Origin: Candidatus Zixiibacteriota bacterium
Lineage (GTDB): Bacteria; Desulfobacterota; Binatia; UBA9968
DNA: 64,000 nucleotides
Assembly: GCA_035574315.1 (NCBI GenBank)
Contig: DATLYW010000037.1
Location: forward strand, 43,853-107,852
Reading direction: 5' to 3'
Shown piece by piece: positions 15,523 to 62,823 of the stretch. The notes beneath the pieces are model-generated. The model saw only the letters and a list, made by a program, of their open reading frames with translations. It was not told the origin of the DNA and did no database searches. The position numbers and the translations under genes are program-made. Numbering within the stretch: position 1 is the first letter of the stretch; each line of letters opens with the position of its first letter.

Positions 15523-16275
15523 TCAAGGATGGGTGTCGCCGCCGGAGCCGCGGTCCGGCGCAAGGCGATCTTCGAGACCCAGGCGCCGGCCGACGAAGGC
15601 GGCCGCCGGAGGCAGGACGACCGCGAGCAGCCCGAGAAGAACCCACGGTCCGGGATCCCCGGAGGCAAAAGCGGCTTCGAGCTGGACGCTGGCAAAGGTA
15701 AGCGCGAGCCAGCCCGGAATGCGACCCAGCAGGCTGGCGCCGAAAAAGTCGGCGAAGCGTATCCCGGCGGCGCCGACGAAAAGGTTCACCAGGGTAAAGG
15801 GCGCGACAGGCAGCAGCCGGAGCACGAGGACCGTGAGAAAGCCGCGGCGTGCCGCGTGGCGGATGACGGACTTCAACCGCGGAGCGGTAAAGCCCTCCAG
15901 CACTTCCCGGCCCGCGAGCCGCCCGATGGTAAAGGCGACTGCGGCGCTGACGAGCCACCCGGCCAGCGCGTAGAGATTTCCCGCGATCGGCCCGAAGGTC
16001 ATGACGGTCGCGAGGGTCAGAGCCGTCGCCGGAACGAACGCGAGGCTGGCGAGGACGTAGGCGCCGACGACCACGTACGCGGCCGCCGGATCATTTCGGA
16101 TCGACTCCTGCCACGCGGCGATTGCCGCGGGATCGATCCAGGCGGCGAGCGGGGTCCAGCGCCAAAGCAGGAAGAGCAAAAGGAAAAGGAGCGCCGCGCC
16201 CGCACGCTTGCAGCGGCCAGCGAAGGCAGGTTCCGGCGTAATCGGAGCCGGCCGTGAAAGCGATTGATCGCGCAT
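15523..16275 (-). CDS. DedA/TVP38/TMEM64 (SNARE-associated) family membrane protein
   Basis: A multi-TM protein with the DedA-type re-entrant motif region (GxxxVxxxRLLPxxP). The exact start is uncertain. Confidence 0.65.
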   Translation of the reverse strand: MRDQSLSRPAPITPEPAFAGRCKRAGAALLFLLLFLLWRWTPLAAWIDPAAIAAWQESIRNDPAAAYVVVGAYVLASLAFVPATALTLATVMTFGPIAGNLYALAGWLVSAAVAFTIGRLAGREVLEGFTAPRLKSVIRHAARRGFLTVLVLRLLPVAPFTLVNLFVGAAGIRFADFFGASLLGRIPGWLALTFASVQLEAAFASGDPGPWVLLGLLAVVLPPAAAFVGRRLGLEDRLAPDRGSGGDTHP

Positions 16276-16555
16276 GTGGTTTCAGGTTAAAGGGTCGGCC
16301 CTGTTGGCGCAAGCCTTCCACGGGAGCCGCTGTGCGGTTTCCACTTCTTCGCGTCGATCCCGGATTCAGGTTGCCGTCGACGCGGGCACCCTGGCCGCAC
16401 CGCCTCCCCTGCGCAGCGGAGGCGACGATCGGGCCACTTCGATTAAACGCCGGTGCTCGATTGAACGGCGAAGCGGCGATAGGTCGACGAACGTTGCAAT
16501 AATTGACTGCGGGCAACCCCCGTGTTACGAAGCAAAAACTTCGCGAGGAAGACAC

Positions 16556-18043
16556 GTGGGGCTGAAATTCGAGGAGTTGAGATCGCTGGATCTGCGCCGA
16601 TGCGCCAGCGCAGGAGATATCGTCGCCGCGATGCGCCACTGCGCCTTCGGAGCGCGCATGCTGGGAGAGATGGCGACGACTCTGCACCAGTTGATCCTCG
16701 ACCGCGAGCGGCCTCTGGTGATCTACGACGGCCTGCCGGATTCCCCCCTGGGCCGTCTTCTCGCGCGCTTCGTCGAGCGCGGCTGGTGCCGCAAGATCCT
16801 CCGGCCCGAACAGTACGCCCGGCGCGCAAGCGGCAAGGAGACGGTGCTGGTGGTCGGCGGATTCTCTGAACGGCACGCCGACGCGGTCTACCGCAAGCCC
16901 TCGCGCGCGCTGTTCATCAATCAGTTCGATCTCGCCCGCCCCGGCCAGATCCGGGACGGCTACTTTCCCGACGCGGTCTTCGCCGATCCGCGGCTGGTGC
17001 TTCCGGTGATCGACTGCGCGCTTACGGAATGGCTGGACGGGCGGCGCTGGTCGGCGGGTCGGCTGCTCGCGAGCCTCGGCGCCTACGGCGGCGTCGCTTC
17101 GCAGGTCGCTCGGGCGGCAACCGCGCTGCAGCGGATGGTGCAGGATCGCGACTGTCTCCGCTTCCTGACCGTCAGCGGAGCGATGACGGTCGGCAAGATG
17201 GACCTGGTGATCTGCGACATGATCGAGCACGGTTTCATCGACGCGATCACCTCCACGGGCGCGCTCATGGCTCACGGCCTGGTGTCGTCGATCGGGCTCA
17301 AGCACTACAAGTACGATCCGTCCTACGACGACACGACGCTGGCGCGCCACCGCCTGAATCGCGTGACCGACACCCTGGAACCGGAAACCAACCTCGACAG
17401 CGTCGAAGAGGTGATCGGCAAGGTGATCGAGCCGATCGACGGATCACGCCCGATCAGCCCCGCGATCCTGAACCGGCACATCGGGCGATACCTCGCGCGC
17501 CGGTTTCCGCGGGAGCGCGGCATCCTGAAGTCCGCCTACCAGCACGGCGTTCCGGTCTTCGTTCCCGCCTTCGTCGACTCGGAGCTGGGAAACGATCTCT
17601 ACATCCACAACCTCAAGCGCCGCCGGCGCGGCCGCAAGCCGATCCTGATCGACCACGAGATCGACAGCAGGGAGCTGATTCGCCTGGTGACCGGGGCGAA
17701 GCGATTCGGCATCTTCACGATCGGCGGCGGCGTGCCGCGCAACAACGTCCAGAACGTCGCCCCCTTGATCGAGATCATCAACGAGCGGCTGGGAGCGATC
17801 TATCCGGAGCGCCGCTTCCACTACGGCATTCGCATCTGCCCCGACCGGCCGCACTTCGGCCATCTGTCAGGGTGCACCTATTCGGAAAACGAGTCCTGGC
17901 GCAAGGCGGCGCCCGACGGCGTCTACGCGGAGGTGCAGGCGGACGCGACGCAGGTGTGGCCGTTTCTCGTGAAATTTCTGATGGACAACACCGCGGGCTC
18001 CGGCCGGACCGCCCGCGACGGCGAAAGGAGGAAGAAACCGTGA
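16556..18043 (+). CDS. Deoxyhypusine synthase-like protein
   Basis: The DHS core motif VSGAMTVGKMDLVICDMIEHGFIDAITSTGALMAHGL...KHYKYD matches the archaeal/eukaryotic DHS GAMVPAGMR...IDVxVTTGANLTHDL...KHYKG. The likely start is GTG at 16556, preceded by GAGGAAG. It carries a roughly 120-aa C-terminal extension. Confidence 0.7.
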   Translation: MGLKFEELRSLDLRRCASAGDIVAAMRHCAFGARMLGEMATTLHQLILDRERPLVIYDGLPDSPLGRLLARFVERGWCRKILRPEQYARRASGKETVLVVGGFSERHADAVYRKPSRALFINQFDLARPGQIRDGYFPDAVFADPRLVLPVIDCALTEWLDGRRWSAGRLLASLGAYGGVASQVARAATALQRMVQDRDCLRFLTVSGAMTVGKMDLVICDMIEHGFIDAITSTGALMAHGLVSSIGLKHYKYDPSYDDTTLARHRLNRVTDTLEPETNLDSVEEVIGKVIEPIDGSRPISPAILNRHIGRYLARRFPRERGILKSAYQHGVPVFVPAFVDSELGNDLYIHNLKRRRRGRKPILIDHEIDSRELIRLVTGAKRFGIFTIGGGVPRNNVQNVAPLIEIINERLGAIYPERRFHYGIRICPDRPHFGHLSGCTYSENESWRKAAPDGVYAEVQADATQVWPFLVKFLMDNTAGSGRTARDGERRKKP

Positions 18044-50047: not shown

Positions 50048-50380
50048 CTATTCGCCCTTTGCGAACGCCGCCTTCAGCATCGATTCCAGCTCGCCTCGCT
50101 CGTGCAGCTCGTGCAGGATGTCGCAGCCGCCGATGAACTTCCCGTCGATGAAAACCTGCGGGATCGTCGGCCAGTTGGAGTAGCGCTTGATTCCCTCGCG
50201 AATCCGCGGGTCGGCCAGCACGTCCTCGGTGGCGAAGGGATAGCCGTACGATCGAAGGATCTCGACCGTGTGGGCGGAGAAGCCGCACTGAGGGAAATCG
50301 GGCGATCCCTTCATGTAAAGCATCACCTTGTTTTTCTTTACCTTCTCGTCGATCTGGTTGAGGATGTCATCCGCCATCAT
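50048..50380 (-). CDS. grxD: Monothiol glutaredoxin (Grx4/GrxD, CGFS type)
   Basis: CGFS active site in KGSPDFPQCGFS, WPTIPQVFI, and C-terminal GGCDI. Confidence 0.85.
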   Translation of the reverse strand: MMADDILNQIDEKVKKNKVMLYMKGSPDFPQCGFSAHTVEILRSYGYPFATEDVLADPRIREGIKRYSNWPTIPQVFIDGKFIGGCDILHELHERGELESMLKAAFAKGE

Positions 50381-50397
50381 TTCCTCCCGACGCCGCC

Positions 50398-50652
50398 TCA
50401 GCGGCCGAGCTTCTCCCACTGGGACGGCGTAAAAAGTTTGAGCGTCAGCGCGTGGATACGCTGATCTTGCATCGGGTCGCGGAGCGCCTCGTTGACCATC
50501 CGGTGCTGCTCGAGCAATCCCTTGCCCTCGAACGCCGGGGACACGATCAGGAGCTGCCAGTGGTCGCCCCCTCCGGTGAGATCCTGCAGCTCGATGGTCG
50601 ACACCGGAAAGGCTTTTTCCAGCGTATTCTTGATCTCTTCGGCGGTGATCAC
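50398..50652 (-). CDS. bolA: BolA-family protein
   Basis: 84 aa with a BolA fold (GGGDHWQLLIVSPAFEGK...H). It is the classic partner of Grx4. Confidence 0.8.
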   Translation of the reverse strand: MITAEEIKNTLEKAFPVSTIELQDLTGGGDHWQLLIVSPAFEGKGLLEQHRMVNEALRDPMQDQRIHALTLKLFTPSQWEKLGR

Positions 50653-50700: not shown

Positions 50701-51210
50701 TCAGGACGAGCCGGGCTGAGGATCGAAGTCGCTGCGGACCTTTTTCATCATTTCTCTCAGGTCGATTCGCAGCTCGTCGAGCGTCGGCCGGCCCACGTAC
50801 CAGTAGCCGCAGTACAGGTTGTGGATCGTGAGATCCGGCAGCAGCGAAAAGGTATAGGGGATCGCCGTTACCCCGCGGCTCCTGGACGTCTCGGTCATGT
50901 CGAGCGACCGAACGATCTTACGGTCGTGGTCGCTCAGAAACGGAAACTCGGCTCCCAGCCCGGCCCGGAATGCCGCGCTGACCTCGGGCGGGTCCACGCT
51001 GGCGACGGCGAGCCTGCAGTAGCTGACCGCCAGCTCCCTCTGGAACTCCACTAAACGGCGCAACTGCACCTGGCACTTCGGTCACCAGTAGCCGCGGTAG
51101 AAGCAGAGAATCAGGGGGAAATTGCCGGCCAGCTCCGACAGCCGGACGGACCGGCCGTCGTGGTCGACGAATTCCAGATCGGGAAGCTGCCCGCCGATCG
51201 AGTACTTCAT
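50701..51210 (-). CDS. Peroxiredoxin/BCP-like (AhpC/TSA, thioredoxin-fold) protein with an in-frame TGA at 51082-51084: candidate selenoprotein (U-P-K-C)
   Basis: ATG 51208-51210 (GGAGG 5 nt upstream) opens MKYSIGGQLPDLEFVDHDGRSVRLSELAGNFPLILCFYRGYW. Then comes TGA, then PKCQVQLRRLVEF... in the same frame for 126 more codons, including the BCP-like FPFLSDHDRKIVRSL block. The TGA occupies the first Cys of a W-C-P-x-C redox motif. Confidence 0.55.
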
Positions 51211-53544: not shown

Positions 53545-54633
<1,089 letters not shown>

Positions 54634-54637
54634 GGCG

Positions 54638-56365
54638 TCACTCGCGGCCGCCCGCCAGATCGCGGCCCGCCGCCCAATGCACCGCCAGGATGACGGCGAA
54701 GGAGACCAGCAGGAGAAAAATACCGAGGACCGAGATCGCGCCCACGAGCCCCTCTTCCTTGAGGTCGAAGATCACCACCGACACGACCTTGGACGCCGGC
54801 GAGAACAGGAGGATCGACGCGCTGAGCTCGCGGATCACGCCGATGAAAATGAAGCACCAGGCGGCGATCAGGCCCGAGCGCGCCAGCGGCGCGGTCACGT
54901 CCTTGAGCGACGTCAGCCGGTTCGCGCCGATGATGCGGCTGGCGTCCTCGAGCTCCGGGTGGATGCTCTTGAAGGTCGACTCCGCCTGGGAAAAGCCGAT
55001 CGGCATCTCCTTGGTGAGATAGGCGACGAAGAGGATCCACACCGTGCCGTAGAGGACGATCGGCGGCCGCGTGTAGACGATGAACAGCGCGACGGCGAGC
55101 ACGATCCCGGGGATGACCAGCGGCGCCAGAGCGAAGAACGACAGGAAGCGGGCGCCCCGCAGGATGTTGCGGTTGGTGATGTAGGCGACCAGCGTCGCCA
55201 GCAGCGTTCCCGCCGTGGCGGTGAGGACGCCGAGCTTGAAGGTGTTGAAGATCGCCCGCTGCGTGTCGGTGTACTGGAAAAGGACGAACTTGAAGTTGTT
55301 CAGCGTGAAGTTGTCCCAGTCGAGCGGCACCGCCCAGGCTTTCGAGAACGCCGCCTTGAGCAGGATCCAGTAGGGCAGGAAAATCGACAACGAGAGGACG
55401 CCCCCAACCAGCAAAAAGGCCGGGACGCGCGCCCATCCCAGCCGCACCAGCCGCCGCTGCCCACCCTTGCCGCCCACTGTGCTGAAGCCGCGCCGCCCGA
55501 GGATCTTCTTCTGCAGCGCGATCAGAGCCATCGTGGCCAGCAGGAGCGGCACCGAAAAGGCCGCCGCCAGGTCGAGCCGCGGCGGATACTGGAAGAACGT
55601 CCAGATCTGGGTGGTGATCGTGTGAATGCCGGCGGGCAGCCCGAGGATCGCCGGCGCGCCGAACAGCGACAGGGAGTGGAGAAAGGCGACGATGAAGCCG
55701 CCGAGCAGCGCCGGCAGCGCCAGCGGCAGAGTGATCGTGCACGCCGTCCGCACCTTGCTCGCGCCCAGGATCACCGCCGCGTCCTCGAGGTCCGAGGAGA
55801 TCAGCTCGCAGACGTTGGCGATCATGGAAAAAACGTAAGGGAAGCTGTAAAGGGCCATCACGAAGATGAGCCCTTCGAGGGTGAAGATATTGAAGAGAAA
55901 GCCGTCGCTTCCCGTGAGTGCACGGTAGAGCTTGTTGAGCGCTCCCGCGTTCGGCCCGGCCAGCAGCGTCCACGCGAACGCGCCCAGGAACGGCGGCGTA
56001 ACGAACGACGCCATGACCAGGGCGCGCACGCACCGCTTCAGCGGAAGGTCGGTGCGCGTCACCAGCCACGCCATCGACCCGCCGGCGGCCACCGCGATGA
56101 TCCCGACCCAGAACGAGACGACGATCGTGTTCCAGATCGCCTTGAGGAACGCGGCGTTGGTAAAGACCTCGACGTACTTGCGGAGCGTGATCCCGGTCTC
56201 GTCCACCAGGCTCGTGCTCACCAGCGAAGCGAGCGGGAGCACCATGAGAAAGACGAGCAGCAACGCGACGCCGGCCCACACGGGCAGCGTCGCGTCGCGC
56301 GTCGCGAGCCCGAGCCGCACGGCGGCCCGTGCCCGGCCGATCGTTTCCGTACCGGCGATCGACAT
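54638..56365 (-). CDS. ABC transporter permease, fused two-domain (FbpB/AfuB-like)
   Basis: 575 aa and roughly 12 TM segments, with two EAA-like loops. This is the typical Fe(III)-type duplicated permease. Confidence 0.85.
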   Translation of the reverse strand: MSIAGTETIGRARAAVRLGLATRDATLPVWAGVALLLVFLMVLPLASLVSTSLVDETGITLRKYVEVFTNAAFLKAIWNTIVVSFWVGIIAVAAGGSMAWLVTRTDLPLKRCVRALVMASFVTPPFLGAFAWTLLAGPNAGALNKLYRALTGSDGFLFNIFTLEGLIFVMALYSFPYVFSMIANVCELISSDLEDAAVILGASKVRTACTITLPLALPALLGGFIVAFLHSLSLFGAPAILGLPAGIHTITTQIWTFFQYPPRLDLAAAFSVPLLLATMALIALQKKILGRRGFSTVGGKGGQRRLVRLGWARVPAFLLVGGVLSLSIFLPYWILLKAAFSKAWAVPLDWDNFTLNNFKFVLFQYTDTQRAIFNTFKLGVLTATAGTLLATLVAYITNRNILRGARFLSFFALAPLVIPGIVLAVALFIVYTRPPIVLYGTVWILFVAYLTKEMPIGFSQAESTFKSIHPELEDASRIIGANRLTSLKDVTAPLARSGLIAAWCFIFIGVIRELSASILLFSPASKVVSVVIFDLKEEGLVGAISVLGIFLLLVSFAVILAVHWAAGRDLAGGRE

Positions 56366-56376
56366 CGGTCAGCCTC

Positions 56377-57396
56377 TTACGCGCCGAAAAACTGCGTGAA
56401 CCGCTTCTTGATCTCGGCGTTTCTCTTCTCGAGCTCGTCGGGATCCGCGTTCAGGAGCTTGAGGTCCTTCAGTTTCGGCTTGTCCGGCGGATAGGTGACG
56501 GCCGGATGACCGGTGTACAGCCCCTCACGATCGGCGAGCAGCTGTTGCGATTCGCGGGCGAAGATGAACTCCATGAAGAGCTTTGCGGCGTTGGGGTGCG
56601 GAGCGTCCTTGGCGACGGCCACCGGGGAGACCACGAGCGGGACTCCCTCCGCCGGGTAGACGATCTTGATCGGATTTCCCTGCTTGAGCGTCTTGTAATA
56701 GAAGTACTCCGCCCCGTTCACGCCGATCGGGCGCTCCCCCGACGCCACCACGCCGGCGGGATCGTTGGCCGACTGCACCAGGTGCAGGCTGTTTTTCGCC
56801 AGATCGCGAAAGTAGTCCCAGCCGTAGAGGTTCACCAGAGCGAGCACGTGCGTCATGATGATCCCGCTGTACCCGGGATGGGCGCTCACCATCCTGCCCT
56901 TCCATTTCGAGTTGAGCAGGTCTTTCCAGGTCTTCGGCGCGTCTTTTTCGGGCACGACCTTCGGGTTGTGCGCGATCACCGAGAGCGTCGCCCTCATTCC
57001 GAAGTAATAGCCGTCCTTGTCCTTGAATCCGGAGGGAAAAGGCTCTACCCCGCGCGGCGTGTACTTGAGCAGCATTCCCTTTTCCTTGAGCAGCACGAAA
57101 TGGCCGGCGTCGGACGTATGGATGATGTCGGCGTTCTTGATGCCCGCTCCGGCCTCCTGCATCACCCTCTGCAGCACGCGCTGCGACCCCGTGCGATGGA
57201 CCTCGACGTCGACGCCCGGGTATTTCGTGCGGAACGCGTGCGCGATCGCGGTCGAGGAAGGGATCGCCAGAGAGGTGTACCAGACGACCTTGCCCTCTTT
57301 TTTCGCGGCCTGGACGAGCGCGGCATCCTGGGCGAAAGCGACCGACACGCCGCCGAGACACCAAACGGCCGCCAGCGCGGCAACGAGCCTCATCAT
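56377..57396 (-). CDS. ABC transporter substrate-binding protein, Fe(III)/SBP_bac_1-like (FbpA/AfuA family)
   Basis: A signal peptide and an extracellular solute-binding fold. It is first in the SBP-permease-ATPase operon. Confidence 0.8.
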   Translation of the reverse strand: MMRLVAALAAVWCLGGVSVAFAQDAALVQAAKKEGKVVWYTSLAIPSSTAIAHAFRTKYPGVDVEVHRTGSQRVLQRVMQEAGAGIKNADIIHTSDAGHFVLLKEKGMLLKYTPRGVEPFPSGFKDKDGYYFGMRATLSVIAHNPKVVPEKDAPKTWKDLLNSKWKGRMVSAHPGYSGIIMTHVLALVNLYGWDYFRDLAKNSLHLVQSANDPAGVVASGERPIGVNGAEYFYYKTLKQGNPIKIVYPAEGVPLVVSPVAVAKDAPHPNAAKLFMEFIFARESQQLLADREGLYTGHPAVTYPPDKPKLKDLKLLNADPDELEKRNAEIKKRFTQFFGA

Positions 57397-57491: not shown

Positions 57492-58865
57492 TCACCCCGC
57501 CCGCAGCAGCTCCGTCAGCTCCCGGATCGACGAAAGCTCCTCCAGCGAAGAGACGGCGGCGATGATTCGTTCCGCCCTCGATTCCGGCAGGGCGAGGCGA
57601 GCGTTCGCGCGGAACTTCTCCTGCAGCTCTTCCGGCGGCAGCGGCCACTCGGGTCCGCCCCGCGGGTGCGGCTGGTTTTCCTCGAGGACCGTCCCGTCGT
57701 CGAGCACGACCCGCACGTGGCCCGAGAAGTGGCGGGGGTAGTCGATCGACGGGTCCAGCTCGTAGCGGACCTTTGCCGCGAGCGCGAGAATTTGCGGATC
57801 GCGGATCGCCGCTTCGGAGAATTCTTCCAGGCCGGCTCTTCCACGCACCAGGATCGCGGCGATGCTGTACGGCAGACTGAACTTGGCGCCGTAGGAGGTC
57901 GCCGGCCGCCGCTTGCTTTCCAGCGGTTCCCAGAGCCGGTGCACCGGCCCTTCGGCCGTCCGGCAGACGATCTCCGCGATGCGTGCCGGGACGAGACCGT
58001 GCTTCTGCCGGAGCCTCAGAGCGCAATCCATGTAGGGATGGGATATCGAGCCGCAGGGATACGACTTGAACGTCAGCCGCGGGGTTTCCCAGGCCCGGCC
58101 GAGCTCCGCCAGCCCTCGAAAATCATAGTCGTCCGGACCCCCGAAGCAGCGATAGAAGCCGTGGCGGCCCTCGAAGACCGTCGCCGGTCCGCGAAAACCC
58201 TGAGCCGCGAGCCAGGTCGCGATCACGCCCGCGTGGGCCGACCAGCCCGGGTGGAGGCGCTTGGTCCAGGTCCCGTCGGCGAGATACTCGATGATGCCCG
58301 AGCTCTGGCTCCCGCACAGCCCGAGGGCATCGACCCATTGCGGCTCCGAGAGGCGGTAGAGCTTCCCCGCCGCAGCGGCCGCGCCGAAGGTGGAACAGAC
58401 CGCCGTCGGATGAAAGCCGCGCGCATGGAACCTCCCCGGCGCTACCAGACCGACCTTGCAGAGCACCTCCGTCGCGGCGATCGCCGCTTCCAGCACGGCG
58501 GCACCGCTGGCGTCCACTTCCTCGCCCACCGCCAGAGCCGTCGTCACCGCGCAGCATCCCGTGTGGACGATCGCTTCCTCCAGCGTGTCGTCGTAGTCCA
58601 GCCCATGGGCGAGAGTCCCGTTTGCCAGCACGGCGTTGGGCGCCGCCGCCCGGATCCGCGACCCGATCACGGTACTGTGCGGCGCCCCGCCCAATCGCTC
58701 GGCGACCCCGCAGACCATTCTCCCGAAGTCCATCGTCGACGAGGCCAGTGCAACGCCGAGCGTGTCGAGGAAAACGAGCTTCGCCTTGGCCGTAACCTCA
58801 GGCGGAACCGCGCCCAGCTCGAGCGAGGAGACGAAACGGGCTATCTGCTGCGAACAGGTCTCCAT
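57492..58865 (-). CDS. MmgE/PrpD family protein (2-methylcitrate dehydratase-like)
   Basis: 457 aa, PrpD fold signatures (DxLG...HGxDYDD). Confidence 0.8.
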   Translation of the reverse strand: METCSQQIARFVSSLELGAVPPEVTAKAKLVFLDTLGVALASSTMDFGRMVCGVAERLGGAPHSTVIGSRIRAAAPNAVLANGTLAHGLDYDDTLEEAIVHTGCCAVTTALAVGEEVDASGAAVLEAAIAATEVLCKVGLVAPGRFHARGFHPTAVCSTFGAAAAAGKLYRLSEPQWVDALGLCGSQSSGIIEYLADGTWTKRLHPGWSAHAGVIATWLAAQGFRGPATVFEGRHGFYRCFGGPDDYDFRGLAELGRAWETPRLTFKSYPCGSISHPYMDCALRLRQKHGLVPARIAEIVCRTAEGPVHRLWEPLESKRRPATSYGAKFSLPYSIAAILVRGRAGLEEFSEAAIRDPQILALAAKVRYELDPSIDYPRHFSGHVRVVLDDGTVLEENQPHPRGGPEWPLPPEELQEKFRANARLALPESRAERIIAAVSSLEELSSIRELTELLRAG

Positions 58866-60289
58866 GCCTGAGCTCTCCTCTGCGCCGGCCGTGCTCTGGG
58901 CCGCTCGCGCCCTCCGGCGACGGCGCGCAGGAGCGGATCGATCGGGCCCCCGGACTTCAGCCGCGTGACCGCGTCGATCGCCTCATCGATGCGAGGCTTC
59001 GGCAGCACCAGGCGCGCGCAGTCGCGGAACTTCTCGCACAACTCCTCCCATGTCATCGGTTTTTCGGGATGTCCGCGGGCGACATCGTATCGGCCCTCGA
59101 TGACGGTGCCGTCCTTCAGATGAACCCGCACCCGCGAGCGAACCTGATCGTAGCCGAGCGCTTCCAGCTCCTCGTCGACATAGAGTTTCACCCGCCGCAT
59201 GAGATCGACGACTTTCGGGTTCCGGACCTTGGCGTCCCTGAACTGCGCGATTCCGGCCTTGCGCTCCAGCACCCCGATCGCCATGCAAAACGGGATGCTG
59301 AACTTCCCCTCGAGCGCGGTCTTCGGCATCGGGTAAATGAGCGCGTTCGGAACGTTCGAGTTGGTTCCCACCTCGATCGAAGCGATATCCTCGGGACGAA
59401 GGTCGTGCTTCTTGACGAGATCGAGGATCAGATCCTGGGCCGGGTGCGAGAGCGAGCCCGACGGATAGGGCTTGATCGAGATCCCCGGCTCGACCAGGAA
59501 GTAGGGACGACCGAGCCTTCCCGAGATCTTGGCGGCGTCGTAGCCGCCCGCCATGGCATTGTAGAATCCCCTGGGAGCCTCGAGGATGTTCGGCGCCGCG
59601 GTGTGGCCGGCGCGTGCCAGCAGCGCCGCCATGGCGCCGTTTTCGGCCGCGCGTCCGGCATGGAGCGGCTTGGTCATCGTGCCGAAATTTTCCCGCAACC
59701 CCCCGGCCATGCTCGCCGCGATTCCCAGAGTCCGGGCGAGCGCCTCCGGTCCCAAGCCGAGGATCCTGGCGCACGCCGCCGCGGCCCCGAGGCCCCCGAT
59801 GGTCGCCGTCGAGTGAAACCCCGACTGATAGTGGCGCGGGTTGATCGCGTCGGCGATCCGGCACTCGACCTCGACTCCCAGAACGTATGCCAGCAGGAGG
59901 TCCCGCCCTCCCGCCTTTTCCCGCTCGGCCAGCGCAAGGGCCGCCGCCAGAACGGGCGTCGTCGGGTGGGTGAGCAGGCCGTAAACCGCTTCTCTGGACG
60001 TCGAGAGCTGGGTGTCGTCGTAATCCATCGCATGGCCCGCCACACCGTTTACCAGCGCGGCCATCGGGGCCGGAGCTTTCCAGCCGTGCCCCAGGATGCT
60101 CGCCTCCTCTCTTCCGCCCATCTCGCGGACGTACGCCTGGATGATGCGCGCCCCCTTTTCCGTGGAACCCGCCAGCGCCACACCCAGACCGTCCAGGATG
60201 AAGCCTTCCGCCAGTCGGATGACCTCCGCAGGGAGATCGCGGTACCTGGTCCTGGCGACGAAATCGGCTATCTCCTGCGTGATCCCCAT
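58841..60289 (-). CDS. MmgE/PrpD family protein, second paralog
   Basis: 482 aa, the same family (FILDGLGVALAG...HAMDYDD). It overlaps the downstream paralog by 25 nt. Confidence 0.8.
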   Translation of the reverse strand: MGITQEIADFVARTRYRDLPAEVIRLAEGFILDGLGVALAGSTEKGARIIQAYVREMGGREEASILGHGWKAPAPMAALVNGVAGHAMDYDDTQLSTSREAVYGLLTHPTTPVLAAALALAEREKAGGRDLLLAYVLGVEVECRIADAINPRHYQSGFHSTATIGGLGAAAACARILGLGPEALARTLGIAASMAGGLRENFGTMTKPLHAGRAAENGAMAALLARAGHTAAPNILEAPRGFYNAMAGGYDAAKISGRLGRPYFLVEPGISIKPYPSGSLSHPAQDLILDLVKKHDLRPEDIASIEVGTNSNVPNALIYPMPKTALEGKFSIPFCMAIGVLERKAGIAQFRDAKVRNPKVVDLMRRVKLYVDEELEALGYDQVRSRVRVHLKDGTVIEGRYDVARGHPEKPMTWEELCEKFRDCARLVLPKPRIDEAIDAVTRLKSGGPIDPLLRAVAGGRERPRARPAQRRAQAWRPVRSR

Positions 60290-60471: not shown

Positions 60472-60500
60472 TTGACACGGCGAGGGCCCTGGGCTAGCTT
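60472..60500 (+). promoter_or_regulatory. Candidate sigma70 promoter (TTGACA-N17-TAGCTT) upstream of the SAM riboswitch
   Basis: TTGACA at 60472-60477, and a -10-like TAGCTT 17 nt downstream. Confidence 0.45.
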
Positions 60501-60514
60501 ACCCGATTGTCTGG

Positions 60515-60630
60515 GCACCTTATCCAGAGTGGTGGAGGGATCGGCCCTTCGAAGCCACAGCAACCGGTTCCTGAAGAGGGAACGCTGGTGCTAATTCCCG
60601 CTCCCGGCAACGGGAGAAAGATAAGGTGAG
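60515..60630 (+). ncRNA. SAM-I (S-box) riboswitch aptamer
   Basis: CTTATCCAGAGTGGTGGAGGGATCGGCCCTTCGAAGCCACAGCAACC...GGTGCTAATTCCCGCTCCCGGCAACGGGAGAAAGATAAGG matches the S-box consensus cUCUUAUCaAGAGnGGuGGAGGGAcuGGCCCgAuGAAgCCcrGCAACC...GGUGCUAAuUCC...GAuAAG. P1 is CTTATC/GATAAG. Confidence 0.8.
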
Positions 60631-60636
60631 GGTCGA

Positions 60637-60672
60637 CCTCTTCTTATCTTTGCGATGGAAGAGGTTTTTTTT
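60637..60672 (+). terminator. Riboswitch expression-platform intrinsic terminator
   Basis: CCTCTTCTTATC-TTTGC-GATGGAAGAGG followed by T9. The 5' arm (CTTATCT) can alternatively pair with the P1 3' strand (AGATAAG) as an antiterminator. Confidence 0.6.
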
Positions 60673-60687
60673 TGGTACGAGACGGCG

Positions 60688-61455
60688 ATGAGCCTGACCG
60701 CCGAGCAGATCGAACGCTACAGCCGCCAGATCATGATTCCGGATCTCGGGGGCGCGGCGCAAATCCGCCTGCGCCGAGCCCGCGTGCTCGTGGTCGGCGC
60801 AGGGGGCCTCGGCTCCCCGGCCGCGCTCTACCTCGCCGCAGCCGGCATCGGAGGGCTCGGGCTGGTCGACAGCGACCGCGTCGAGCTGTCGAACCTCCAG
60901 CGGCAGATTCTCCACTCGACGGCGGACATCGGCCGGCCCAAGGTCGAGTCCGCACGGGAGCGCCTCCGGCAGCTCAATCCAGAAGTCGCGGTGGAGACTT
61001 ATCCCCTGCGTCTCGAGGCCGACAATGCCGCGGAGATCTTCGCCGGCTACGACTTCATCGTCGACGGAAGCGACAACTTCGCCACCAAGTTCCTGGTCAA
61101 CGATCAGGCGGTTGCCCTGGGAAAACCGTTCTCGCACGCGGGAATCGTGCGGCTCCAGGGCCAGACCATGACGGTCATTCCGGGAAAGAGCGCCTGCTAC
61201 CGCTGTGTCTTCCGGGAGCCTCCTCCGCCGGCCGAGATTCCGGGGTGTCAGCAGGCCGGAATCCTGGGGGCGGTGGCCGGAACCATCGGCTCGATCCAGG
61301 CAGCCGAAGCCATCAAGGTGCTCGCCGGGATCGAGGAGGGCCTGCTCACCGACCGCTTGCTCACCTTCGACGCCAGGGCGATGAAGTTCCACGCCGTGGA
61401 GGTTCGGAGGGACCAGAGCTGCAGCGCCTGCGGAGGGCTGCGCCCGCAACTGTAA
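60688..61455 (+). CDS. ThiF/MoeB/MoeZ-family E1-like adenylyltransferase
   Basis: Start MSLTAEQIERYSRQI. VLVVGAGGLGSPAALYLAAAGIG nucleotide-binding motif, and a CxxC...CxxC zinc site (CYRC...CSAC). Confidence 0.8.
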   Translation: MSLTAEQIERYSRQIMIPDLGGAAQIRLRRARVLVVGAGGLGSPAALYLAAAGIGGLGLVDSDRVELSNLQRQILHSTADIGRPKVESARERLRQLNPEVAVETYPLRLEADNAAEIFAGYDFIVDGSDNFATKFLVNDQAVALGKPFSHAGIVRLQGQTMTVIPGKSACYRCVFREPPPPAEIPGCQQAGILGAVAGTIGSIQAAEAIKVLAGIEEGLLTDRLLTFDARAMKFHAVEVRRDQSCSACGGLRPQL

Positions 61456-61528
61456 GGCGGGGCTCGAGGCGCCGGTCGGTGGAAGTGAAAGATGTTCTGA
61501 TTTAAACTGGTCAAGGAGGTTTGATTTT

Positions 61529-61807
61529 ATGGCAGTTAGAGTCCGCGTGCCCACGCCGCTTCGCAAATTCACGCACGGCGCGGACGAGGTCGATGCTCAG
61601 GGGAGCACGGTCAAGGCGATCGTCGAGGACCTGGAAAGGAAGTTTCCGGGAATCAAGGAGCGGATCTGCGACGAGAACGGGAAGATCCGGCGCTTCGTGA
61701 ACGTCTACGTCAACGGCGACGACATCCGTTTCCTGCAAAACCTCGAGACCTCTCTCAAGGAAGGGGACAGCATCTCCATCGTCCCCGCCATCGCGGGCGG
61801 CCGCTGA
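61529..61807 (+). CDS. MoaD/ThiS-family sulfur-carrier protein (CysO-like), C-terminus ...AIAGG-R
   Basis: 92 aa, a beta-grasp-type sequence ending in GG followed by one extra Arg. The RBS is AAGGAGG. Confidence 0.65.
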   Translation: MAVRVRVPTPLRKFTHGADEVDAQGSTVKAIVEDLERKFPGIKERICDENGKIRRFVNVYVNGDDIRFLQNLETSLKEGDSISIVPAIAGGR

Positions 61808-61821
61808 GCCGGAGCGGAGGC

Positions 61822-62823
61822 ATGGCATCGATCAGTCCCGTGCTGCGCCCCGTCCCGGAGGAGAGGCGGGAGCTCAGAAAGGTCGAATCGGTCCTCGAGC
61901 TGATCGGCAACACACCGTTGCTCGAGATCCGCAGGATCACCGAAGGATTGCCCTCCGGGGTGCGCATCTTCGCCAAGCTGGAAGGCTTCAACCCCGGCGG
62001 CTCGGTCAAGGACCGGGCCGCGCTGCGCATGGTGCAGGAAGGGATTCGAAGCGGGAAGCTGACGCGTGGAAAAACGATCCTGGATTCCACCTCGGGCAAC
62101 ACCGGCATCGCTCTGGCGATGATCGGCTGTGTCCTCGGCTATCCCGTGGAGCTGGTCGTTCCCGGCAACGTGAGCGTCGAACGCAAGCACATCCTGCACG
62201 CTTACGGCGCCAAGGTCACTTTCAGCGATCCGCTCGAGGGCTCCGACGGCGCCATCCGCCTGTGCCGCAAGATCTTCGAGCAGAATCCGGCGCGCTACTT
62301 CAAGCCCGACCAGTACTCGAACCCGATGAACCCGCAGGCGCACTACGAGACCACTGGACCGGAGATTTACCGACAAACGCGCGGCCGGATCACCCACTTC
62401 GTCGCCGGGATCGGCACCGGGGGAACGATCATGGGCGTGGGCCGCTATCTCAAGGAGGTCGACCCGTCGATCCGTGTCATCGCCGTCGAGCCGGACGACG
62501 CGCTTCACGGGCTCGAAGGCCTGAAGCACATGGCGAGCTCGATCGTGCCCGCGATCTACCACGAAGAAGAGCTCGACGACAAATTCCCCGTCTCAACGGA
62601 AGACGCCTACGCAATGGTCTACCGCCTGAGCCAGGAGGAAGGCGTGCTCGTGGGGCAATCTTCCGGTGCGGCGATGTTCGCCGCGCTCAAGCTCGCGCGC
62701 CGGCTGGAGTCCGGCACGATCGTGACGATCTTCCCCGACTTCGGCGACAAATACCTGAGCACCAATCTCTGGGTGGGCTGGCGCGACCGGATGGCGGTCG
62801 GCAATCTGAAGTTCGCGATCTGA
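61822..62823 (+). CDS. Cysteine synthase family PLP enzyme (CysK/CysM-like, candidate thiocarboxylate-dependent sulfhydrylase)
   Basis: PLP Lys in NPGGSVKDRAA, and GNTG, GTGGT loops. Confidence 0.85.
   Translation: MASISPVLRPVPEERRELRKVESVLELIGNTPLLEIRRITEGLPSGVRIFAKLEGFNPGGSVKDRAALRMVQEGIRSGKLTRGKTILDSTSGNTGIALAMIGCVLGYPVELVVPGNVSVERKHILHAYGAKVTFSDPLEGSDGAIRLCRKIFEQNPARYFKPDQYSNPMNPQAHYETTGPEIYRQTRGRITHFVAGIGTGGTIMGVGRYLKEVDPSIRVIAVEPDDALHGLEGLKHMASSIVPAIYHEEELDDKFPVSTEDAYAMVYRLSQEEGVLVGQSSGAAMFAALKLARRLESGTIVTIFPDFGDKYLSTNLWVGWRDRMAVGNLKFAI

Follow-up and report, generated by a model that had tools for sequence, protein, structure and literature searches.

Why would an operon that looks made for cysteine synthesis stand under a riboswitch for S-adenosylmethionine (SAM)? 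The question is posed by a 64,000-nucleotide stretch of contig DATLYW010000037.1 (hereafter the window, meaning the whole stretch), in which a SAM-I, or S-box, aptamer precedes three genes on the forward strand. These are thiF, for an E1-like adenylyltransferase, cysO, for a ThiS/MoaD-like sulfur carrier, and cysM, for a pyridoxal 5'-phosphate (PLP) enzyme of the cysteine synthase family. A previous reading, made from the sequence only, had assigned the operon to the general class of protein-thiocarboxylate-dependent sulfur amino-acid synthesis under SAM control, which our analysis upholds. It had also accounted for the SAM control by having the CysK/CysM-fold enzyme make homocysteine, and this part finds no support in related operons, in which the aptamer tracks a thrC-like gene that the window does not have. 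We think it probable that the operon derives from a widespread Binatia-type operon, that it has lost a MetM-type gene while retaining the ancestral SAM switch, and that its CysM-type enzyme makes cysteine via the carrier thiocarboxylate.

The SAM-I leader and its association with a thrC-like gene

The aptamer occupies positions 60517-60627 (+) and matches the Rfam SAM-I model RF00162 over its full length (model positions 1-108 of 108) at 90.1 bits, against a gathering score of 44.4 (E 3.8e-20); it is the sole Rfam match in a scan of the entire 64 kb. On our own covariance model, R1, which was built from 13 aptamers and used to search all related loci, it scores 116.6 bits, as high as any aptamer in the family, and in 111 related loci thiF is likewise preceded by a homologous aptamer. 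A promoter-like motif, TTGACA-N17-TAGCTT (-35 box, 17 nt, -10 box), can be read at 60473-60501 (+), at a position that is conserved in the related loci labelled L009, L010 and L164. It falls below the threshold of a consensus promoter scan and is likely the promoter of the riboswitch leader.

RNA folding places the expression platform, an antiterminator and an intrinsic terminator, at 60617-60674 (+). The antiterminator is a pairing of 60617-60626 with 60642-60651, available as long as P1 does not engage its 3' strand (minimum free energy -21.4 kcal/mol). The terminator is a hairpin at 60635-60666 (-15.3 kcal/mol, z -2.0), after which nine U extend to about 60674. The two folds are mutually exclusive because 60642-60651 is common to both, and the terminator/antiterminator platform predicted by the sequence-only reading is thus confirmed along with the aptamer. 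The platform sequence, GATAAGGTGAGG...CCTCTTCTTATCT...GAAGAGG-U9, is kept in L009, L012 and L022. A simple terminator scan missed the hairpin because of its internal mismatch, and it was detected by folding instead. Judged by its architecture, the platform would be a classical OFF switch, off at high SAM.

The operon was compared with about 160 related loci (labels L0xx and L1xx), mostly from Binatia-like soil metagenome-assembled genomes (MAGs) and metagenome contigs. One sample was obtained by scanning one genome per GTDB species and yielded 80 loci, most of which belong to Binatia or to MAGs bearing the label Deltaproteobacteria or Syntrophobacter. The other, independent of the first, consisted of 80 metagenome contigs picked by similarity to the thrC-like protein. 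The state of the thrC-like gene and of the aptamer was scorable in 129 loci. The usual operon consists of the SAM-I aptamer, thiF, the thrC-like gene, cysO and cysM (45 GTDB loci), and the thrC-like gene lies between thiF and cysO in 111 of the 129. On the 80 metagenome contigs it always directly follows thiF where upstream sequence exists, is never stand-alone and is nearly always followed by cysO-cysM, and an aptamer is present in 62 of the 65 having enough upstream sequence. A single complete GTDB locus (L048) has the thrC-like gene and no aptamer. The shorter arrangement thiF-cysO-cysM occurs without aptamer in 15 GTDB loci, one of which (L029) is cut off upstream, and a filter-free search upheld the absence in the ten that were re-searched. 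The same three genes are preceded by an aptamer in two GTDB loci, L009 and L022, and in the window.

Overall, 107 of the 111 operons that have the thrC-like gene also have the aptamer, versus 3 of the 18 that do not (Fisher p = 2e-13, a value that overstates independence given the kinship among the loci). Because the riboswitch is almost always found with this gene, which we read as MetM-type for reasons given below, and is usually lost without it, it appears to belong to the MetM-type gene and not to cysM. If CysM itself served methionine, as had been proposed to explain the SAM control, the opposite would be expected where the thrC-like gene is absent.

In a rough neighbour-joining tree of CysM, the operons that have no thrC-like gene do not group together but occur in scattered places, which indicates several independent losses of the gene. 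L164, the closest relative sharing the PrpD and sigma-factor synteny of the window, encodes a CysM that is 85% identical, has no thrC-like gene and has lost the aptamer; L162 and L163 (84% identity) have the full five-part operon. In L020 (2560-2665) and L164 (598-705) the promoter and a strong intrinsic terminator, with a perfect 10-bp stem and a U-run, are kept directly before thiF without the aptamer, and in L010 (the sister of L009), L018, L019 and L021 the leader is reduced to the promoter. The leaders of loci without the thrC-like gene therefore look like stages of decay, and the family would represent a natural series of riboswitch loss after loss of the main target gene, with the window in an intermediate state. 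A 402-aa PLP gene upstream of thiF in L018 was considered as a displaced MetM and rejected, as it encodes an IlvA-type dehydratase with an ACT domain.

A second promoter-like motif stands before cysO in most close relatives, irrespective of whether they have the thrC-like gene, and consists of CCTTGCA(A/T)GG, about 17 nt and TAT(A/T)NT. It is found 40-90 nt upstream of cysO in L012, L013, L017, L018, L020, L021, L022, L162 (4630-4665) and many others, and would confer SAM-independent expression of cysO and cysM. The motif is absent from the corresponding stretch of the window (61456-61528). Because its thiF-cysO spacer is short (74 nt) and without the motif, cysO and cysM of the window probably depend on read-through from the SAM-controlled leader. 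In the window lineage the metM-like gene would have been deleted together with the motif before cysO, leaving cysteine synthesis here dependent on SAM-controlled read-through.

The missing motif also speaks for a different account, since the whole module appears to be riboswitch-dependent without it. SAM control would then be adaptive: cysteine made by CysO and CysM would be committed methionine sulfur, passed on by transsulfuration (cystathionine gamma-synthase and beta-lyase), and general cysteine would come from another synthase. Cysteine feeding methionine was the weaker alternative of the sequence-only reading, and S-box control of sulfur-assimilation genes, such as the Bacillus subtilis cysH operon, is a precedent for it. 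However, no metB, metC or metI was found in the window by Pfam scans, which covered 51 of the 56 predicted open reading frames (ORFs), leaving out three small ORFs and two that run off the window ends. Most relatives without the thrC-like gene have, moreover, dropped the aptamer, so SAM control of cysO-cysM alone is usually not favoured, and we regard this account as distinctly unlikely.

Loss of the thrC-like gene and of the internal promoter-like motif, with relatives' leaders in varied decay, might also suggest that the operon is a decaying remnant without useful function. This is scarcely credible, as all three frames are intact, with strong coding signatures in the GC content of third codon positions and Shine-Dalgarno sites, the proteins are 70-85% identical to those of relatives and retain the invariant motifs, and the aptamer scores as well as the best of its family. 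Most likely, then, the window holds a MetM-less derivative that keeps the ancestral SAM switch.

The MetM-type candidate, the E1 enzyme and the sulfur carrier

The thrC-like gene of the related operons encodes a fold type II PLP protein of 420-447 aa, which matches threonine synthase models and begins with a zinc ribbon at its N-terminus. Its identity reaches 53.8% with a gene of Nonomuraea gerenzanensis versus about 35-38% with haloarchaeal thrC and solved threonine synthases. The Nonomuraea locus (L081; NZ_LT559118.1, 3816-5506) comprises a SAM-I aptamer (68.7 bits), the zinc-ribbon thrC-like gene and a gene for a 91-aa carrier ending in GG. The record NZ_LT559118.1 is an 11.85-Mb chromosome misfiled as a 'plasmid' in PLSDB, where the L081 stretch is unannotated. 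A MetM/MetO route to homocysteine in Streptomyces albulus was reportedly described by Hasebe et al. in 2024, a study cited in PMC12172450 and in the GapMind 2026 preprint. PMC12172450 places a SAM riboswitch upstream of S. albulus metM, and the GapMind 2026 preprint has MetM convert O-phosphohomoserine and the MetO thiocarboxylate to homocysteine, with the help of Mec and MoeZ. Because L081 has the riboswitch-metM-metO layout of S. albulus, we read the Binatia thrC-like gene as MetM-type and its product as a putative homocysteine synthase.

Like the S. albulus system, the window has a SAM riboswitch over a sulfur-carrier operon, its relatives carry a MetM-like thrC homologue, and its carrier is 53% identical to the MetO-like protein of the Nonomuraea locus. 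Unlike it, the window has no MetM-type gene, and Mec and MoeZ are not linked. Binatia-type operons further differ by the addition of thiF and cysM, and appear to share the carrier between two PLP enzymes. In the ancestral operon, the one carrier would also have fed a MetM-type homocysteine synthase using O-phosphohomoserine. The suggested arrangement is thus one in which a single carrier and a single rhodanese-less E1 serve both a MetM-type and a CysM-type enzyme under one SAM-I riboswitch. No JAMM peptidase is linked in this arrangement, although about 90% of the carriers would have to be trimmed at the C-terminus. We found no description of a five-part operon with a carrier apparently common to MetM-type and CysM-type enzymes in the searchable literature, although its individual parts (SAM-I riboswitch, ThiF-type E1, CysO/MetO carrier and CysM-type enzyme) are all known. 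The protein-thiocarboxylate route, which serves cysteine synthesis in Mycobacterium tuberculosis and homocysteine synthesis in Wolinella and, since 2024, in Streptomyces, would be extended by these operons to an abundant uncultured soil lineage, Binatia and relatives. Genome annotations should avoid the name threonine synthase for the thrC-like genes of these operons.

In the window, thiF (60688-61455, +) encodes a ThiF/MoeB-type E1 adenylyltransferase of 255 aa (Pfam ThiF, 286 bits). The protein passes the NCBIfam model PRK05690 of the MoeB subfamily (268.9 versus a cutoff of 266), and among solved structures it comes closest to the Uba4 adenylation domain, E. coli ThiF and MoeB. An alternative in-frame ATG exists at 60655, and the start was set at 60688 because homologues align from there and the upstream ATG sits within the terminator stem. 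The E1 had been described as ThiF/MoeZ. The ThiF part holds, and the likeness to MoeZ was rejected because the rhodanese domain is absent: Pfam finds the ThiF domain alone, and the match to the MoeZ model NF005902 spans only profile positions 10-262 of 392. The E1 proteins of the related loci are likewise without a rhodanese domain throughout, with a median ThiF length of 262 aa.

The carrier gene cysO (61529-61807, +), with a Shine-Dalgarno sequence AAGGAGG 8 nt upstream, encodes a CysO/MetO-type protein of 92 aa ending in AIAGG-R (Pfam ThiS, PF02597, 66.8 bits). Its best solved relatives are CysO of M. tuberculosis (3dwg_C) and of Amycolatopsis (4n6e_B), both at E 1e-23; matches to MoaD-type proteins are at E 1e-8 or weaker. 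The residue that follows Gly-Gly had been taken to call for a processing step. In 144 carrier homologues the tail is GGR in 61 and a bare GG in 13, and the rest have varied single residues or short tails; 131 of the 144 extend at least one residue beyond GG. As the window carrier likewise has no free C-terminal Gly-Gly, the comparison bears out that C-terminal trimming would be required, probably by a peptidase encoded elsewhere. The statement that no such peptidase lies in the operon also stood, since a motif scan and the Pfam scans found no JAMM/MPN peptidase in the 64-kb window, and none of the 80 genome loci showed a JAMM-like gene over a distance of about 4 kb. Two JAMM motif matches in the window lie inside unrelated large ORFs, and those in the 80 loci are off-frame noise only; all were rejected.

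A carrier with an extra residue after Gly-Gly and an E1 without rhodanese are also features of the HcyS-HcyF-HcyD-MetY homocysteine pathway of Wolinella succinogenes, reportedly described by Krishnamoorthy and Begley in 2011 (cited in PMC5764234), which like the present operon would serve sulfur amino-acid synthesis. Here, however, the PLP enzyme is CysM-type, and neither a MetY-type (fold type I) enzyme nor a JAMM protein corresponding to HcyD was found in the window or the related loci. Clusters of carrier, E1 and cysteine synthase are also found in neighbourhood type 4c of Iyer, Burroughs and Aravind (2006; PMC1779556), which combines ThiS/MoaD, an E1-rhodanese fusion, JAB and cysteine synthase. 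The window differs from type 4c in that it has neither JAB nor the rhodanese fusion, has a SAM-I leader, and belongs with relatives most of which carry the thrC-like gene.

The carrier itself leaves room for another account of the switch, since at 53% identity to the Nonomuraea MetO-like carrier and 49-50% to CysO (49% to that of M. tuberculosis) it is as close to the one as to the other. The operon might still serve methionine if a MetM- or MetY-type synthase encoded elsewhere used the carrier, the riboswitch setting the supply of E1 and carrier and CysM being a co-user. The high-scoring aptamers and intact terminators kept without a thrC-like gene in the window, L009 and L022 would agree with this, and only part of the genome is in view. 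However, tblastn found no thrC-like sequence in the 64 kb, in the metagenome sample the gene is found right after thiF and never by itself, and 15 of the 18 operons without it have lost the aptamer. We consider a methionine role of this kind unlikely.

The CysM-type enzyme and its probable product

The last gene of the operon, cysM (61822-62823, +), encodes a CysM-type fold type II PLP beta-replacement enzyme of 333 aa (Pfam PALP, 240 bits), and with it Pfam and NCBIfam matches support the trio of E1, GG-R carrier and CysM-type enzyme that had been recognised from the sequence. The protein passes TIGR01136 for cysKM (356.5 versus 344.15) and remains below TIGR01138, the equivalog model for E. 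coli-type cysM (367.8 versus a cutoff of 394.2), with a TIGR01138 score 61 bits over that of the CysK model TIGR01139. Solved cysteine synthases are matched at E 4e-71, and the PLP-lysine motif SVKDR and the substrate loop TSGNTG align with theirs. The enzyme has the short CysM-type loop, HGLEGLKHM here as compared with SIPGIRRW in Salmonella CysM and GVYALRNM in M. tuberculosis CysM, and this loop is invariant in 81 family sequences. Relatives at more than 80% identity number in the thousands and come from soil metagenomes. At positions conserved in the rest of the family, the window enzyme differs by just two changes of its own, a number equal to that of its relatives, and its sequence thus gives no sign of a new function.

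The coding sequence starts at 61822, shortly after cysO ends at 61807, and the two genes adjoin each other likewise in nearly all metagenome loci and in 78 of the 80 genome loci, the remaining two being truncated before cysM is reached. This strict adjacency is the strongest argument for a CysO-thiocarboxylate-dependent cysteine synthase. Genes of sulfate activation follow the operon in some relatives (ATP sulfurylase in L050, CysD and CysN/C in L066), which is compatible with a role in sulfur assimilation.

One of the closest parallels is the CysO-CysM-Mec-MoeZ system of M. tuberculosis (3DWG), in which a carrier 49% identical to that of the window adjoins an enzyme 40% identical and an E1 is needed. 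It differs in the rhodanese domain of MoeZ, which the window E1 does not have, in the absence of a nearby Mec/JAMM gene and the presence of a residue after GG in the window, in Arg220 of CysM, a lysine here, and in the SAM-I riboswitch over the window operon. Cysteine is the most probable product of the CysM-type enzyme, with the carrier thiocarboxylate as sulfur source as in M. tuberculosis. At low SAM the antiterminator would form and thiF-cysO-cysM would be transcribed. The residue past Gly-Gly would be trimmed, ThiF would adenylate the carrier on the way to the thiocarboxylate, and the latter would attack the aminoacrylate that an activated serine (O-phospho- or O-acetylserine) yields on the CysM-type enzyme, with cysteine as the product, as in the CysO/CysM route of M. 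tuberculosis. A SAM riboswitch before a cysteine synthase gene should not on its own be taken to mark a new methionine enzyme.

Several points weigh against this reading of the operon. The MetM assignment on which it turns draws on gene context and on the likeness (54% identity) to a gene of an actinomycete, itself uncharacterised, which served as a proxy for S. albulus MetM. The window, L009 and L022 are three separate lineages with an intact aptamer and no thrC-like gene, and SAM control kept in all three could be still useful and not a leftover. With no JAMM/Mec found in the window or within about 4 kb in the 80 loci and no rhodanese, the reading does not account for maturation, sulfur loading and product release; in M. 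tuberculosis, Mec, a JAMM enzyme, has the further task of freeing cysteine from the carrier. The PLP enzyme is 40% identical to M. tuberculosis CysM and 42-43% to CysK1 and Salmonella CysM, and so no closer to CysM; with all three at 40-43%, similarity to characterised enzymes gave no assignment. According to Agren et al. (2008), Arg220 of M. tuberculosis CysM reportedly binds the phosphate of O-phosphoserine. It aligns with Lys235, still basic and invariant in the 81 members, so this position does not separate O-phosphoserine from O-acetylserine as the substrate. Finally, a metM-like gene may be present elsewhere in the genome, as 64 kb of a 143-kb contig are in view.

The invariant Lys235 and the family-specific loop do mark a distinct subfamily, and to that extent they agree with the proposal of homocysteine synthesis by the CysK/CysM-fold enzyme itself, in which activated homoserine would react with the carrier thiocarboxylate. 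This proposal has its sole support in the riboswitch context, and the aptamer follows the thrC-like gene, not cysM. A dedicated MetM-type enzyme is present in 111 of the 129 scorable operons, where a second homocysteine synthase would be redundant. The enzyme itself has the serine-type TSGNTG and CysM motifs and nothing unusual among its substitutions. The cysteine synthase family carries out beta-replacement, and we know of no gamma-replacement in this fold outside the ThrC/MetM branch. Homocysteine synthesis by the CysM-type enzyme is thus very improbable.

A wider version of the sulfur-entry idea holds that the riboswitch was kept since E1, carrier and CysM together form a SAM-governed entry of sulfur into methionine, CysM taking activated homoserine or its cysteine being committed to transsulfuration. 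On this version, trimming and release would not be the work of a linked JAMM, and the Binatia-type operon would be a single-carrier hub for cysteine and homocysteine PLP enzymes under one SAM switch. Taken as a whole we find it doubtful.

The CysM-type enzyme could conceivably run the opposite way, as a cysteine desulfhydrase or sulfur mobiliser that gives sulfide or persulfide to the adenylated carrier and so replaces a rhodanese. In favour of this, the E1 is without rhodanese in all these loci, and the operon has no other sulfur-transfer gene. The Cds1 model is matched only weakly, however (55.9 bits versus a cutoff of 600), against 300-368 bits for cysteine synthase models. The strict cysO-cysM adjacency mirrors the CysM-CysO complex of M. 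tuberculosis, and the loaded carrier would have no consumer in the window. We give such a reversal hardly any credence, and continue to prefer cysteine synthesis by a MetM-less operon.

Surroundings of the operon and of its relatives

Genes of the MmgE/PrpD type lie upstream of the operon and are divergent from it. They are tandem paralogues at 57492-58865 (-) and 58841-60289 (-), of 457 and 482 aa, both far below the equivalog cutoffs for 2-methylcitrate dehydratase, and the pair is preceded by an ATP-binding cassette (ABC) transporter operon at 53545-57396. Downstream of the operon are a convergent uncharacterised gene, an anti-sigma factor and an extracytoplasmic function (ECF) sigma factor. 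Beyond the operon, the Pfam scans found no met or cys gene in the window.

The genes that follow cysM vary among relatives. In L162 (6010-6273) and L163 (5099-5362) cysM is directly followed by a stand-alone NIL-domain protein of 87 aa (PF09383), and small ORFs resembling it are present in L006, L018 and L022; the window is without it. In MetN, the ATPase of the methionine transporter, the NIL domain is the C-terminal one. L050 (5232-5834) and many Binataceae loci have an ORF of about 200 aa after cysM, which matches only the first ~60 residues of ThiF, with an identity of about 50%. Elsewhere this position is occupied by a second, full-length paralogue of ThiF. Genes for a haloacid dehalogenase (HAD) hydrolase and ATP sulfurylase come next.

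The source MAG is labelled 'candidate division Zixibacteria' by NCBI, and the exact PLP enzyme is recorded from there. Yet the operon has its nearest relatives, and its flanking genes their synteny, in Binatia and 'Deltaproteobacteria' MAGs, with single matches labelled Eisenbacteria, Verrucomicrobiia and Enterobacteriaceae, and the taxonomic labels in this group look unreliable.

Two further features of the window lie away from the operon. At 16274-18043 (+) a 589-aa protein contains a deoxyhypusine synthase domain (PF01916, 232 bits) only at residues 264-567, and its N-terminal ~260 aa have no Pfam match. At 50048-50652 (-) a glutaredoxin gene adjoins bolA, a typical Grx-BolA pair tied to iron-sulfur and redox functions, and a truncated AhpC/TSA-like ORF lies next to the pair at 50701-51069.

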